DNA of 40,374 bases from Candidatus Doudnabacteria bacterium CG10_big_fil_rev_8_21_14_0_10_41_10. Lineage in GTDB: Bacteria > Patescibacteriota > Doudnabacteria > UBA920 > 2-01-FULL-50-11. Shown here piece after piece: positions 32,198-38,825 of the stretch (the stretch's first letter is position 1; the number at the start of each line of letters is the position of its first letter). The stretch covers positions 5,961 to 46,334 of the forward strand of contig PFAJ01000070.1 in NCBI GenBank assembly GCA_002773695.1. The letters are read 5' to 3'. The notes beneath the pieces were generated by a model. It searched no databases. It was not told the DNA's origin and worked only from the letters and a program-made list of their open reading frames with translations. A program made the translations under genes and the position numbers.

Positions 32198-32201
32198 ACA
32201 A

Positions 32202-32273
32202 AGCGGGTAACGGGAGTCGAACCCGTATCTCGTCCTTGGCAAGGACGCATAATAGCCACTATACGATACCCGC
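32202..32273 (-). tRNA. tRNA-Gly (anticodon GCC)
   Basis: The minus strand reads GCGGGTATCGTATAGTGGCTATTATGCGTCCTTGCCAAGGACGAGATACGGGTTCGACTCCCGTTACCCGCT. Cloverleaf with anticodon loop TTGCCAA and T-loop TTCGACT. No encoded CCA. Confidence 0.9.
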
Positions 32274-32369
32274 TAAAAAAACTAACAATATTAATTTTTT
32301 AATTTACAAGGAATTGAGTATTAGTGAGAGAGAGAAAATGAAATACAAAATTGGAAAAAATTATAATAA

Positions 32370-32448
32370 GGTGCGGGGTGAGCCCATATCCCTGCCGGCG
32401 GCAGGGCATCCTTGGCAAGGACGCATAATACCACTATACGATACCCGA
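32370..32448 (-). pseudogene. orphan tRNA-Gly(GCC)-like 5' part fused to a foreign hairpin and the 13-mer TCACCCCGCACC
   Basis: The minus strand reads TCGGGTATCGTATAGTGGTATTATGCGTCCTTGCCAAGGATG-CCCTGCCGCCGGCAGGG-ATATGGGC-TCACCCCGCACC. The acceptor 5' strand, D arm and anticodon arm are nearly identical to the real gene about 100 nt downstream. The T arm is replaced and there is no matching 3' acceptor strand. Confidence 0.65.
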
Positions 32449-32511
32449 CGAAAAGAATATTTAAATATACTTTCCAATTTTAACTTAAAAACAATCCTTC
32501 TTCAACCCCCC

Positions 32512-34177: not shown

Positions 34178-34714
34178 TTATAATCTAACTAGCCTGTACT
34201 CCCATCCTGGTCTCCATGCCCAAGGGGTGGTTACCGCCTGCCTTAAAAGGGTCTTATTTATAAAATATTCAAGAGCATATTGTGTTGCCCGGTGACCTAT
34301 TATTAAAACAGTTTTGCCGTCGTATTTTTTTAGTAAGTCTAGCAAAAAAAATTTCATTAGCGTCGTGGTTTATTCATAGCTTTCCCCTTCTGGAAAAGGT
34401 ATTTTTACCTTCCGAGCTTTTTGGTATTTAACCTCGGCGCTTGGTCGTTTGGTCATCTTCCCGTAATCAATCTCCGAAAGTCTTTTGTCAATAATTATCG
34501 GGATACGATTTTCGAATGCGATTTTTCCCGTATCCAAAGATTTTTTTAGATTGGAACAAAAAACCGCGTCGGGTAAATTATTTTTATACCTATCCCCCAA
34601 TTGTTTCGCTTGCGTCTCACCTAGTTTGGAGAGTTCTATATCATAGTGACCTGAGGCAAGTCCTTTTTCATTGTTCAAAGTTGTACCGTGTGCTTCAAAA
34701 ATGATAGTAATCAT
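34178..34714 (-). pseudogene. histidine phosphatase (phosphoglycerate-mutase-like) family gene interrupted by an in-frame TAA
   Basis: The N-terminal part (34373-34714) ends ...PEGESYE, followed by TAA at 34370-34372. The same frame then continues TTTLMKFFLLDLLKKYDGKTVLIIGHRATQYALEYF...RLVRL to the stop at 34178-34180. The canonical RHG motif reads EAHGTT, so the catalytic Arg is replaced by Ala. Confidence 0.7.
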
Positions 34715-34815
34715 TTCGTTTTATTCTACGTGAAACAATTGTAAAACACTCTTAATCGGGGCGCTGGGAGTTGATCCGCCTAGGCGGACTACACGCGCCT
34801 TTACCCCGTTAAACA

Positions 34816-34886
34816 TCGGGATGCCGGGAATCGAACCCGGTCTTCACGCACCCGAAGCGCGCGTACTACCGGTATACTACATCCCG
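34816..34886 (-). tRNA. tRNA-Pro (anticodon CGG)
   Basis: The minus strand reads CGGGATGTAGTATACCGGTAGTACGCGCGCTTCGGGTGCGTGAAGACCGGGTTCGATTCCCGGCATCCCGA. Anticodon loop TTCGGGT with G37, T-loop TTCGATT. Confidence 0.9.
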
Positions 34887-35031
34887 ATGATGTCTAACGG
34901 GGCGAACGTACGTTTTTTATTTTGTGAAATTTTTTAAAAGAAATTTGTTCCGGTTAAATTCCCTCCCCCGATCTCGTTTCCATGAGATTTTTTGAGCTTT
35001 ACCCCCGGCGGAATTTCACCCCGCACCTTTT

Positions 35032-35103
35032 TCTCCCCACCAGGAATCGAACCTGGATCTAGGGCTTAGGAGTCCCTTGTTCTATCCATTGAACTACGGG
35101 GAG
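35032..35103 (-). tRNA. tRNA-Arg (anticodon CCT)
   Basis: The minus strand reads CTCCCCGTAGTTCAATGGATAGAACAAGGGACTCCTAAGCCCTAGATCCAGGTTCGATTCCTGGTGGGGAGA. Anticodon loop CTCCTAA. It closely parallels the E. coli argW layout as I remember it. Confidence 0.88.
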
Positions 35104-35108
35104 CAAAA

Positions 35109-35174
35109 GGCGCGGGGTGAACTTACATTTAGAGCTTAGGCTTCCCTTGTTCTATCCATTGAACTTACGGGGAC
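35109..35174 (-). pseudogene. orphan tRNA-Arg(CCT)-like 5' part ending in TTCACCCCGCGCC
   Basis: The minus strand reads GTCCCCGTAAGTTCAATGGATAGAACAAGGGAAGCCTAAGCTCTAAATGTAAG-TTCACCCCGCGCC. The D arm is identical to the real gene 5 nt downstream. The anticodon loop is changed to AGCCTAA (U33 lost), and there is no T arm or 3' acceptor strand. Confidence 0.65.
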
Positions 35175-35238
35175 TCTTCTTTAATTTTAGCAACCTATTC
35201 TCCTACTAACAAACCCGCCTTTATAGCGGGCTTGTTTC

Positions 35239-35309
35239 TGGACCCACGGGGAATCGAACCCCGACCTCATCCATGCCATGGACGCGTAATGCCACTTTAC
35301 TATGGGCCC
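35239..35309 (-). tRNA. tRNA-Ala (anticodon GGC)
   Basis: The minus strand reads GGGCCCATAGTAAAGTGGCATTACGCGTCCATGGCATGGATGAGGTCGGGGTTCGATTCCCCGTGGGTCCA. G3:U70 identity pair present; anticodon loop ATGGCAT. Confidence 0.9.
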
Positions 35310-35418
35310 TGGTTTGGGCCAACTGCCTGCCCACCGAAGTCATAGACAAAGGTGGGAGCGATAGGCCCATACTATTTTAGATTACCTAAAGCAATATATC
35401 ATAAATTGTATTATTATT

Positions 35419-35971: not shown

Positions 35972-37771
35972 ATGGCTAAATTTACACAAAAATTCATCCT
36001 AATCTTATTTGGAATATTGGTTCTTCTCCTTCCTATACAAACCAGATTAATCCAATTTATCCCTGAATCACACATTGATCAGAGTTTCATATTCTATAAT
36101 GTGCTATTTTTGTATATTTCAGACATTATTTTAGCTCTAACTCTAATAATCTGGGCCTTTTCAGGCTTGTTTCACATGAAACAAGCCTCCCCAACTATGC
36201 TTCAGCGCAAGGAGCAAGAGAGTGTTTCCCACGAAACATATAATAAGGCTCTTAATAATGTCGGCAAGAGGAATGTTTTCCATGAAACTAAGCTGGGTAG
36301 ATTAGGTAATGTTTCGCATGAAACATACCTTTGGTTGTTTTTTCTTGTTTCTTGTTCATCACTCATTGTTTCACGTCAAACAATAGGATCATGGGAGTTG
36401 ACTTTTTTTGGCTTATTTAAGCTATTTTTAGCTGTTTCTTTGTTTAGTTTCATGCGAAACATATTTAAAAAGGGTGTTTTCCATGAAATTTCGACTGTAG
36501 AAGGTCATTCTAAGAAGAGTTTCTGGGGGATGTTTCCCATGAAACAGTTGGCAACTTCTACTTTTTGGCTAATTTTAGCAACTTCTATGTTTCAGGCTGG
36601 ATTATCCATTATTCAGTACTTTACCCAGAAATCTGTAGGAGTGAAACTTTTAGGCGAAGAGGTTATAAGAAACCATATTCCGGGCATAGCCAAATTTATT
36701 GTTTCAGGAGCACCAAGATGGTCGCTTGATCGTCTGTTTGATGTTTCCCATGGAACATCGATTTTAATTCGTCCGTATGGTACATTTTCTCACCCTAATA
36801 TTTTTGGGGCCTTTATGTTTTTCTCTGCTCTAATAAATTTTTACCTCTATGTTTCATATGGAACAAATGTTCAAAACAATGATCAAAAAGAGGGGAGCGT
36901 TTCCCGTGGAAGATGGGTTAAGGGATTGCTTTCGTTTGTTCTTTTCGTTCAGATTTTTGCCGGAGTAATTTCTTTTTCTCGAGTCGCGATAGTGGCGTTT
37001 GGTTTATCGACCCTTTTTTGGTTTGTGTTAATGTGTTTCATGGGAAACAAATCCAAAGCAAATGTCATTTCCGCGTTGCGCCCTTCTGAAGCCTTTGGCG
37101 AAGGAGGGAAAACGGGAATCCATGACCGAGAAGACAGGCAAGTAAGAAAACCTGGATACCCGATCGGATTCGGGGATGACAAAAAAACAAAGATAGCAAT
37201 AAAATCTTTCAGTCTTACATTTTTTAAAAAAGAAGGAAGGGGACTGATTATTACTTTGGTAGCGAGTGGGATTATCCTGTCAGCACTTTTCTACCCTCAC
37301 TTTTTAGAGCGTGGGGGAGTTGTTTCACATGGAACAACTAACGAAAGGTCTATATCTGAAAGGATTTTATATCAAAAAATTTCCGTGGAGATGATAAAAC
37401 AAAACCCACTCACCGGAGTGGGTTACAAGAATTTTGTAATGGTAATGGATGACTATAGCCCACAAAAATTACAGTCGAACCAACATCAACCTGTCCACAA
37501 TATTTATTTATTGATAGCCGCAGAAACCGGTTTACCCGCCTTGATAATATTTTTGATATTTATAATAACTATTCTAAAGCAAGCCTGGTGGAATCGAAAA
37601 GATCCTTTAATCATAACTTTATTATCTATATTTATCGGATTCCTTTTTATCGGACTGTTTGATCATTACTTATTGACTATCCAGCAGGGGAGACTAATGT
37701 TTTTTTTAACCGCGGGATTGTTGGCAGTATCATCCAAAATAGCAGTACCAGCCTACTCTATGAAAAAGTAA
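35972..37771 (+). CDS. enlarged O-antigen ligase/polymerase-like (Wzy_C) membrane protein carrying the parS-like palindromes
   Basis: 599 aa. The C-terminal part has the Wzy_C-like segment FSRVAIVAFGL...HQPVHNIYLLIAAETGLPALI. The N-terminal and central parts contain hydrophilic inserts with recurring VSHET/VFHET/MFPMKQ peptides. Confidence 0.75.
   Translation: MAKFTQKFILILFGILVLLLPIQTRLIQFIPESHIDQSFIFYNVLFLYISDIILALTLIIWAFSGLFHMKQASPTMLQRKEQESVSHETYNKALNNVGKRNVFHETKLGRLGNVSHETYLWLFFLVSCSSLIVSRQTIGSWELTFFGLFKLFLAVSLFSFMRNIFKKGVFHEISTVEGHSKKSFWGMFPMKQLATSTFWLILATSMFQAGLSIIQYFTQKSVGVKLLGEEVIRNHIPGIAKFIVSGAPRWSLDRLFDVSHGTSILIRPYGTFSHPNIFGAFMFFSALINFYLYVSYGTNVQNNDQKEGSVSRGRWVKGLLSFVLFVQIFAGVISFSRVAIVAFGLSTLFWFVLMCFMGNKSKANVISALRPSEAFGEGGKTGIHDREDRQVRKPGYPIGFGDDKKTKIAIKSFSLTFFKKEGRGLIITLVASGIILSALFYPHFLERGGVVSHGTTNERSISERILYQKISVEMIKQNPLTGVGYKNFVMVMDDYSPQKLQSNQHQPVHNIYLLIAAETGLPALIIFLIFIITILKQAWWNRKDPLIITLLSIFIGFLFIGLFDHYLLTIQQGRLMFFLTAGLLAVSSKIAVPAYSMKK
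36168..37336. repeat. array of 13 degenerate parS-like 16-mers inside the CDS
   Basis: Site starts are 36168, 36223, 36274, 36310, 36367, 36446, 36475, 36531, 36742, 36850, 36898, 37034 and 37321. All fit TGTTTC-N4-GAAACA with 1-5 mismatches to TGTTTCACGTGAAACA. Confidence 0.65.
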
Positions 37772-38610: not shown

Positions 38611-38701
38611 ACTTTGTTGTTTTTAAATTAACAAAAAATCGTTTTTTTACGAAACAGCATTTGCACTTCGTAGCCCCGAGTAATAGCGAGGAGCGAAGAA
38701 G

Positions 38702-38772
38702 TGGACTCACCGGGAATCGAACCCGGGCCTCAGCAATGCGAATGCCGCGTAATACCACTTTACTATGAGCCC
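38702..38772 (-). tRNA. tRNA-Ala (anticodon CGC)
   Basis: The minus strand reads GGGCTCATAGTAAAGTGGTATTACGCGGCATTCGCATTGCTGAGGCCCGGGTTCGATTCCCGGTGAGTCCA. G3:U70 present; anticodon loop TTCGCAT. Confidence 0.9.
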
Positions 38773-38780
38773 ATGAATTT

Positions 38781-38825
38781 GGTGCGGGGTGAAAATGCCG
38801 CGTAATACCACTTTACTACCGGTCC
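38781..38825 (-). pseudogene. orphan tRNA-Ala-like 5' half ending in TTCACCCCGCACC
   Basis: The minus strand reads GGACCGGTAGTAAAGTGGTATTACGCGGCATT-TTCACCCCGCACC. The D arm and the 5' anticodon stem are identical to the real tRNA-Ala(CGC) 8 nt downstream, and the acceptor strand differs. The tRNA similarity breaks off inside the anticodon loop. Confidence 0.65.

Follow-up and report, generated by a model that had tools for sequence, protein, structure and literature searches.

The tRNA-Arg(CCT) locus

The window analysed here is a stretch of 40,374 nt from Candidatus Doudnabacteria bacterium CG10_big_fil_rev_8_21_14_0_10_41_10 (contig PFAJ01000070.1 of assembly GCA_002773695.1). Its minus strand carries an intact tRNA-Arg(CCT) gene that is enclosed by two inverted copies of a 13-mer and, outside these, by what appear to be the two parts of another tRNA-Arg gene (coordinates of all features in Table 1). 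We call the intact gene inner and the disrupted, resident gene outer. From 35174 down to 34997, the order is a truncated tRNA-Arg (GTCCCCGTAAGTTCAATGGATAGAACAAGGGAAGCCTAAGCTCTAAATGTAAG), the 13-mer TTCACCCCGCGCC, TTTTG, the intact tRNA-Arg(CCT), AAAA, GGTGCGGGGTGAA, and ATTCCGCCGGGGGTAAAG. The two 13-mers are of the TTCACCCCGCRCC type and pair with a single G-U; together with the adjoining U and A runs they form a helix of 17 bp, and in a repeat search the inverted repeat reaches 27 nt, with 89% complementarity, once the acceptor stem is counted. In the predicted RNA fold of 34996-35180(-), the 17-bp leader-trailer helix sits on the tRNA cloverleaf (-74.9 kcal/mol, z = -4.98; none of 200 shuffles folds as well), and an outer 6-bp helix, UCCCCG/CGGGGG, joins the 5' end of the truncated tRNA to the sequence downstream of the second repeat.

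A sequence-only reading of this locus had proposed inverted 13-mers around the tRNA, a 17-bp leader-trailer helix stacked on it, and an orphan tRNA-Arg 5' part directly upstream. The first two proposals are borne out: ARAGORN and Rfam both recognise the tRNA, the 13-mers lie at both coordinates, and the fold contains the helix. The orphan is also real, as its local alignment to tRNA positions 2-55 scores 67 against a shuffle maximum of 26, but it is not the separate object that it was taken for, and runs through the T-stem into the T-loop TTCA. Since this TTCA is also the first four bases of the 13-mer, the orphan would be the 5' three-quarters of a split outer gene. Its decay is apparent from the G at position 33, an additional A, and the loss of pairing in the T-stem. 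The same reading had suspected a tRNA-Arg 3' remnant in the downstream sequence ATTCCGCCGGGGGTAAAG, and this too holds up: the sequence pairs with the orphan 5' end in the fold, and remnants of T-loop Arg insertions in other genomes of the Candidate Phyla Radiation (CPR) align with GGTGCGGGGTGAAATTCC... In particular, GGTGCGGGGTGAAATTCCGCCGGGGGTA of the window aligns column by column with the T-loop-type Arg 3' junctions of six other contigs. The flanks of the locus, TTCA and TGAA, are inverted and not direct. Judging from these alignments, the locus would be a T-loop-type insertion that keeps both repeats and both outer remnants. A promoter-like site adjoins the upstream side of the outer gene and, by its match to the consensus, probably drives the inner tRNA-Arg.

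Two further loci in the window

Allowing at most one mismatch, the 13-mer TTCACCCCGCRCC occurs four times in the window against 0.05 occurrences expected (none of 100 shuffles reaches four), and all four copies are associated with tRNA genes. Every minus-strand copy is preceded by a truncated 5' part of the tRNA gene next downstream of it (Arg, Ala-CGC, and Gly-GCC); the succession of outer 5' part, 13-mer, and intact gene of the same isotype is found at three of the five tRNA genes of the window. The 13-mer of tRNA-Ala(CGC) is preceded by GGACCGGTAGTAAAGTGGTATTACGCGGCATT, which is identical over 25 of 25 nt to positions 8-32 of the intact tRNA, and the locus can be read as an anticodon-loop-type relic of which the outer 5' part and one repeat are left. 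The 13-mer of tRNA-Gly(GCC) lies around 95 nt upstream of the gene and follows a 5' copy, a GC hairpin, and the T-arm-like ATATGGG-CTCA. This arrangement suggests a T-loop-type relic, again with the outer 5' part and one repeat left. A second promoter-like site, recognised by consensus match only, lies upstream of the Gly orphan. The best reading of the window is that it holds three decayed copies of one element. We found no further 13-mer in the 16.4-kb locus L015, which overlaps the window and continues for ~6 kb past its end, or in the loci that extend upstream. The tRNA-Leu(GAG) gene, the single tRNA gene added by ~15 kb of genome extension, has no 13-mer.

Some other features of these tRNA genes were observed along the way. 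The hairpin CCCTGCCGCCGGCAGGG at 32390-32406(-) belongs to a second kind of small GC-rich hairpin, represented elsewhere by CCTGCCTGCCGGTAGGCAGG (loci L161/L197/L243, L025, L067, and L132), which splits defunct copies of outer tRNAs in places such as the D loop or the variable region. It may represent another small insertion family in the tRNA genes of CPR bacteria. The tRNA-Pro(CGG) gene is bracketed by a different inverted repeat of 8 bp, CCCCGTTA / TAACGGGG, at 34895-34902 and 34804-34811(-). The sequence GGATCAACTCCCAGCGCCCCGAT at 34755-34777(-), ~40 nt downstream of this gene, was tried as a tRNA-Pro fragment reaching from the T loop to the 3' end and was rejected, with an identity of 17/23 that is not significant relative to shuffles.

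Recurrence in other genomes

In a pilot scan of viral sequences, the bare 12-mer turned out to be the 3' end of a phage tRNA-Val within a tRNA array. The bare 13-mer was dropped as a query for the collections because true tRNA ends and chance hits would swamp the scan, and the idea that it mimics a tRNA 3' end or a primer-binding site was abandoned once a family of inverted pairs had emerged. A query made of the 12-mer with a T loop after it gave 112 hits in species-representative genomes. Most of them can be put down to chance or belong to tRNA arrays of GC-rich bacteria. Those at low GC stand apart: they are found in metagenome-assembled genomes (MAGs) that carry the labels Moran-, Uhr-, Doudna-, Sungii-, Falkow-, Lipton-, or Saccharibacteria, as well as in MAGs of the Parcubacteria/Patescibacteria group, and have a common order. 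The 5' half of an outer tRNA and TTCA-CCCCGCACC come first; a complete same-isotype tRNA then follows between two linkers, the first of them short and made of A/T, and GGTGCGGGG-CAAG and the 3' half of the outer tRNA complete the locus. At locus L124, three tRNA-Glu genes are each nested in the next.

To be independent of the isotype, a scan of metagenomes used the inverted pair CCCCGCACC...GGTGCGGGG with 72-102 nt between its members, and returned at least 120 stretches. Among the matches listed, 137 inverted pairs share a core of 9 nt, with core-to-core spacings of 38-150 bp. A tRNA is enclosed in 41 of these 137 pairs (Glu, Arg, Met, Val, Pro, Leu, Ala, or Lys), in both orientations relative to the search strand, and the unique low-GC loci comprise 36 of the tRNA type and 81 that hold no tRNA. 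One-sided relics, in which an outer 5' half, a repeat, and an intact tRNA are left with the single repeat, recur in MAGs, one of them of Doudnabacteria, and resemble the Ala and Gly loci of the window. Like miniature inverted-repeat transposable elements (MITEs), these sequences are small, non-coding, and present in several copies (three loci in 40 kb of the window genome), and they are bounded by terminal inverted repeats.

The proposal of the sequence-only reading that a cassette of two terminal inverted repeats and a tRNA had split a resident tRNA-Arg gene is supported by these data, as the same pair brackets nested same-isotype tRNAs in many CPR genomes. The tie between the 13-mer and tRNA genes, on which that proposal depended, holds for all four copies in the window, but not everywhere, since elsewhere the repeat also flanks inserts that are not tRNAs.

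A scan of viral sequences with the bare pair of 9-mers gave apparently unrelated longer palindromes and chance hits in GC-rich sequence, and no member of the tRNA type. In contigs of large phages and giant viruses (L251-L298 from IMG/VR, e.g., UViG_3300027763_001560 and GVMAG-M-3300018868-12), the 9-mer forms part of a longer repeat, GGAACCAAGGTT-CCCCGCACC-CCTCC..., of palindromic multi-copy elements with different flanks and no tRNA cargo. Rfam has no family that matches the orphans, the inserts without tRNA, or the class of inserts with a conserved internal hairpin described below. It also gave no intron match at the gathering or the E-value threshold, so that no catalytic core of a group I intron was recognised.

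Insertion sites and flanks of the tRNA-type members

The insertion sites of the tRNA-type members are in the anticodon loop or in the T loop of the outer gene, and the outer isotype is that of the inner gene. One end is flanked by TTCA and the other by CRRG (CAAG in 14 members, CGGG in 10, others in the rest), never by TTCA. When TTCA...CAAG is replaced by CA in anticodon-loop members, a tRNA with the inner anticodon that ARAGORN detects is restored in seven cases (four Glu, one Met, and two Val). Members of the form CYYG...TGAA lie in the T loop or, for Pro, in the anticodon loop, and removal of the segment from the core to TGAA restores a tRNA of the same isotype in nine cases. The restored loops then read CCCG-ATT or CGCG-GGT, without T54-T55 or without U33. 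In most cases all seven pairs of the outer acceptor stem are intact, which shows that the two outer halves belong together. Three genomes have tRNA-Glu members whose inner genes are 82-88% alike among themselves, compared with 50-76% to their own outer genes; this sample is small and hints at a horizontal spread of the inner genes.

Members without tRNA

The 81 unique low-GC pairs without tRNA hold ~70-110 nt of varied sequence (among the matches listed, as above). Beside the core, their arms are complementary within an element and different between elements. The search pattern forced only TCA on the left flank; the first base, which was left free, is T in 71 of the 81. On the right, 37 members have TTCA, and the two flanks agree in all four bases in 38. 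The 4-bp direct repeat TTCA of these members is a target duplication or the overlap of a recombinase. At L150, two elements abut as GGTGCGGGG-TTCA-CCCCGCACC.

In three metagenome contigs, members lie in the part of NAD-epimerase genes that codes for the GxGxxG motif (L131 899-1007; L172 4288-4382 and 5358-5452; L248). The host gene runs up to ...GGNGCNGGN-TTCA and is followed by CCCCGCACC and an AT-rich stretch with a ribosome-binding site. A new ATG then opens ~11 codons, the last of which are GGTGCGGGG (Gly-Ala-Gly), and TT(C/T)A leads in frame into the remainder of the host gene. The insertion leaves an orphan N-terminal fragment and a duplicated TT(C/T)A. These are clearly self-healing insertions at the level of DNA, which bring a replacement for the part that they sever, just as an outer tRNA gene receives a whole inner one.

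A separate subclass of the members without tRNA has a conserved internal hairpin, GGCGAAGCCGCC-loop-GGCTC (L133, L135, L136, L138, L153, L154, L158, L162, L211, and L230), which may be a structured RNA.

Host genome, relatives, and encoded CCA

The gene content of the window, with bactofilin, DUF4446, Wzy_C, and PBP1, and with dnaA and dnaN upstream, is that of a CPR/Patescibacteria chromosome near the replication origin, at 38% GC. The homologues of its NUDIX protein are labelled Candidatus Doudnabacteria, and identical contigs are found in several metagenomes of groundwater type; the JGI samples 3300004208 and 3300025142 contain the organism. In two relatives among Doudnabacteria, L008 and L010, synteny extends over bactofilin, DUF4446, Wzy_C, NUDIX, and the tRNAs Ala-CGC, Pro-CGG, Ala-GGC, Arg-CCT, and Gly-GCC. 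Neither relative has the 13-mer or any orphan, and both serve as the empty state for the insertions.

The two relatives also differ from the window organism in the 3' CCA of their tRNA genes, which is encoded by five of the five orthologues in each of them and by none of the six tRNAs of the window organism. Across the family, CCA is encoded by 1 of 35 inner tRNAs and by 6 of 23 outer ones. These contrasts suggest that the tRNA set of the window organism has been turned over by replacements of this kind.

A proposed small element that replaces the gene it disrupts

The interpretation that we favour, with a probability of about 0.68, is that the 13-mers are the ends of a non-autonomous, MITE-like element with a cargo that takes the place of the gene disrupted by it. 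This element would be ~110 bp long and hairpin-forming, with the core CCCCGCACC...GGTGCGGGG, and in the tRNA subfamily its cargo would be one complete tRNA gene lacking CCA. It would enter a resident tRNA gene of the same isotype at a position that corresponds to a single-stranded loop, be it the anticodon or the T loop, and destroy that gene. The linkers of the tRNA-type members have only 4-12 nt, and because this leaves no promoter of its own to the cargo, the latter would use the promoter of the outer gene, be co-transcribed from it, and be released by the ordinary enzymes of tRNA end processing. Expressed and processed in place of the resident, the cargo would make the insertion self-healing and able to become fixed. 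The outer halves would then decay, and repeated rounds would produce nested genes. Members landing in essential genes would persist only where their cargo replaces the lost function. What the sequences themselves show is the anatomy of the loci, its recurrence and nesting, the agreement in isotype, and the lack of these structures in relatives; mobility at the level of DNA, co-transcription of the inner tRNA, and the nature of the enzyme are inferred.

Several observations weigh against this interpretation. The duplication of TTCA is absent in all 36 tRNA-type members, whose flanks are asymmetric, with 2-4 loop nucleotides replaced and not duplicated. We tried target duplications of 2, 4, and 6 bp, and none fits the TTCA / CRRG flanks; the overlap of a serine or tyrosine recombinase and an IS200/IS605-like insertion 3' of TTCA fail on these flanks as well. 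No transposase or recombinase could be linked to the element, and ~1.09 Mb of low-GC loci contained no autonomous copy with the same ends and no pairs at distances of 0.2-3 kb. The model does not account for how the element acquires a cargo that matches its target. This match may arise from survivorship together with a preference for targets that resemble the element ends: the element might use pseudo-ends, for instance GGT-GCGGG-TTCR of T arms or GGNGCNGGN-TTC of Rossmann motifs, and survivorship would then do the rest. Finally, no relatives closer than L008 and L010 were found, as the identity of the anchor NUDIX protein falls from 100% to 74%. Because relatives are so distant, the insertions of this lineage cannot be directly dated or polarised.

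As for the enzyme, our guess is a Xer-type tyrosine recombinase acting in trans on a site that resembles a core site or on the folded hairpin, with a DDE transposase as the alternative. Xer-like recombinase genes lie ~100-400 bp from elements in two independent contexts, and the abutted ends, in which inverted arms of 9 bp enclose a short spacer, resemble a core site. These observations, along with the stem-loop targets, point weakly to a tyrosine recombinase. The generic members agree just as well with a DDE transposase that duplicates 4 bp, and no integrase gene is present at the three loci of the window. One could go further and see here a class of "gene-replacing" hairpin elements of ~100 bp in CPR bacteria, built on a recombinase-type site (CCCCGCACC/GGTGCGGGG around TTCA) and moved by a host Xer-like recombinase into targets that resemble stem-loops, possibly as folded single-stranded DNA. 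Such elements might survive through the fresh tRNA or the Rossmann-fold N-terminus that they carry, and their invasions might turn over the tRNA set from CCA-encoding to CCA-less genes and leave Russian-doll tRNA genes behind. We offer this broader scheme as a tentative one and consider that it is more probably wrong than right.

Alternative explanations

The position of the insertions brings to mind the classical integrative elements that target tRNA genes (phages, integrative and conjugative elements, or plasmids with a tyrosine integrase), of which later deletion could have left only the att sites. The anticodon loop and the T loop are reportedly the classical sublocations of integrases in tRNA genes, and the insertions are found at these places; the resemblance of the abutted ends at L150 to a recombinase core site and the Xer-like genes mentioned above agree with this explanation too. 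Yet more than 30 independent loci have a uniform content of ~110 bp, without element body or integrase. Classical integration moreover produces direct repeats of the 3' part of a tRNA, not a whole tRNA between the halves of another, and the repeats seen here are inverted. We therefore regard such scars as an unlikely origin. We think it rather less likely still that the leader-trailer duplex is a processing stem of the RNase III type, selected for the maturation of tRNA-Arg, next to an orphan that is an unrelated duplication. The long duplex predicted here, of 17 bp, or of 27 nt at 89% with the acceptor stem, is what such a stem would require. The neighbouring tRNA-Pro(CGG) has its own complementarity of leader and trailer over 8 bp, and the hairpins of Correia-type repeats are RNase III substrates. 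However, both repeats and the full helix are present at one of the six tRNAs only, as Ala(CGC) and Gly have a single upstream copy and Ala(GGC) and Leu have none. The pair also encloses sequences that are not tRNAs and, in T-loop-type loci, is antisense to the tRNA, and the single repeats, the orphans, and the members without tRNA would be left unexplained. In addition, it is the exact sequence and not merely the pairing that is conserved across phylum-level distances, which argues for the recognition of DNA ends by a protein.

The least probable of the explanations we considered, which we judge very unlikely, places the event in RNA: the outer gene would be a functional interrupted or split tRNA whose halves are joined by the helix after excision of the inner one, and spliced by an endonuclease and a ligase as in archaea such as Nanoarchaeum. 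The layout is formally that of split tRNAs, with a 5' half followed by a GC-rich 12-13-mer and the complementary 12-13-mer followed by a 3' half. Many loci have intact outer acceptor and T stems, and even in the window the outer 5' and 3' ends pair in the minimum-energy fold. Still, no scheme of excision rebuilds a normal loop, as the TTCA..CAAG type needs CA to be restored and the CYYG..TGAA type gives loops that lack U33, or both T54 and T55. Manual pairing of the junctions, made without a motif-search tool, gave no bulge-helix-bulge but an asymmetric internal loop in place of two 3-nt bulges 4 bp apart. An intact tRNA of the same isotype is always present, which makes the outer gene dispensable, and the outer genes of the window are visibly decayed or truncated. 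The epimerase inserts have their own start codon and hence need no splicing.

Comparison with known systems

The element resembles MITEs and the small palindromic repeats of bacteria (Correia/nemis of Neisseria, RPE of Rickettsia, ERIC, and REPIN) in being a multi-copy, non-coding hairpin of ~100 bp with terminal inverted repeats, and its generic members have a short direct repeat (TTCA) that may be a target duplication. It also sits inside genes, as RPE does, and carries captured host sequence, as do the Pack-MITE/Pack-MULE elements of plants. It differs from MITEs in its cargo, which is a complete functional tRNA gene or a replacement N-terminus that matches the disrupted gene, in its targets, which are the loops of tRNA genes, and in the conservation of only 9-13 bp at ends that enclose very different interiors. 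Unlike MITEs, the tRNA-type members lack a target duplication, and no autonomous partner was found in the low-GC loci searched. P4-like and SSV-like elements and tycheposons share the insertion into the anticodon or T loop, the restoration of the tRNA by the element, and the leftover tRNA fragments. However, these elements have kilobases of DNA, their own integrase, and direct repeats, and they supply only the displaced part of the tRNA, whereas here a unit of ~110 bp with inverted repeats supplies a whole tRNA.

The split and intron-containing tRNAs of archaea (Nanoarchaeum equitans and the tri-split tRNAs of Caldivirga) also have complementary GC-rich 12-14-mers beside their halves and a break in the anticodon loop. 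In contrast, the present case concerns a bacterium, no bulge-helix-bulge can be drawn, removal of the insert gives no functional loop, and a complete tRNA lies between the halves. Integron attC sites and the pdif modules of Acinetobacter are similar in that only short terminal motifs are conserved around a variable, self-complementary centre of 60-140 nt, with inverted sites of recombinase type. Here there is neither an integron platform nor an array, the sites lie scattered over tRNA loops and coding regions, and the link to a recombinase is a candidate one. A search of the full-text literature, including the motif as text, found no description of the pattern. Its parts are familiar, namely hairpin repeats of the MITE kind and integrative elements that restore the tRNA gene they enter. 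What appears to be new is their combination: a cargo tRNA nested in the loop of a gene of its own isotype, repeated nesting, a motif found across CPR bacteria, and the parallel patches for the N-termini of enzymes.

If this interpretation is correct, the function of an essential single-copy tRNA gene can survive its invasion and replacement, and this would drive the turnover of tRNAs in the reduced genomes of CPR bacteria. It would account for tRNA fragments, for "leader-trailer" helices, and possibly for the loss of encoded CCA, features that could otherwise be mistaken for introns, split tRNAs, or signals for processing. A motif of 9-13 nt conserved over phylum-level distances implies a specific protein partner, which could be a site-specific DNA-insertion activity aimed at the loops of tRNAs. 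The epimerase cases suggest a more general principle, that of an insertion which brings its own repair patch.

Table 1. Features of the three loci and other tRNA genes. Positions refer to the window unless a contig is named.
Feature	Position	Strand	Evidence
Intact tRNA-Gly(GCC), no encoded CCA	32201..32274	-	ARAGORN, Rfam
T-arm-like remnant ATATGGG and terminal repeat CTCACCCCGCACC (one mismatch)	32370..32389	-	
GC hairpin after the outer tRNA-Gly 5' part	32390-32406	-	
Outer tRNA-Gly 5' part, acceptor to anticodon arm	32407..32449	-	39/40 identity; score 72, shuffle maximum 22
Putative outer tRNA-Arg 3' remnant ATTCCGCCGGGGGTAAAG (rest of T-loop, T-stem 3' strand, acceptor 3' strand)	34997..35014	-	Fold pairing; alignment
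Downstream terminal repeat TTCACCCCGCACC (read on the tRNA strand, GGTGCGGGGTGAA)	35015..35027	+	
Inner intact tRNA-Arg(CCT), no encoded CCA; proposed element cargo	35032..35103	-	ARAGORN; Rfam 61.4 bits
Upstream terminal repeat TTCACCCCGCGCC, core CCCCGCGCC; its TTCA doubles as T-loop start of the outer gene	35109..35121	-	
Outer (resident, disrupted) tRNA-Arg 5' part, acceptor to T-stem	35122..35174	-	Local alignment; 85% repeat
Promoter-like TTGTTA-17-TAAAAT (TG)	35184..35212	-	Consensus match only
Intact tRNA-Ala(CGC), no encoded CCA	38701..38772	-	ARAGORN, Rfam
Terminal repeat TTCACCCCGCACC, 8 nt upstream of tRNA-Ala(CGC)	38781..38793	-	
Outer tRNA-Ala 5' half, ending at anticodon-loop position 33	38794..38825	-	Score 50, shuffle maximum 22
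All window tRNAs without encoded CCA	32201-32274, 34815-34887, 35032-35103, 35239-35309, 38701-38772		
tRNA-Leu(GAG)	L015 15527-15612		

Other observations in and around the window

Upstream of tRNA-Ala(GGC), at 35312-35370(-), there is a hairpin region, GGGCCTAT-CGCTCCCACC...GGTGGGCAG-GCAGTTGGCCC, the arms of which are loosely similar to the 9-mer and the flanks of which resemble both acceptor strands of tRNA-Ala. Possibly this is a remnant, reduced to the extreme, of a tRNA-replacing insertion.

Between 35884 and 37050(+), in or just upstream of the Wzy_C gene (35972-37771), we observed 7-9 copies of the palindrome TGTTTCNNNNGAAACA, and a further copy is found at ~34722. The copies within this open reading frame (ORF), which resembles an O-antigen ligase, encode in-frame repeats like VSHET / VFHE / MFPMKQ and look like in-frame palindromic insertions in the style of RPE. 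The histidine-phosphatase gene at 34370-34714(-) covers only about the first 118 of 194 profile positions and is followed downstream by a separate ORF of 59 aa; it is probably a frameshifted pseudogene. Next to tRNA-Leu, ~6 kb past the end of the window (L015 15929-16225), an ORF of 98 aa has an HTH_32 domain, typical of the N-terminus of IS481/IS3-type transposases, and looks like a transposase fragment.

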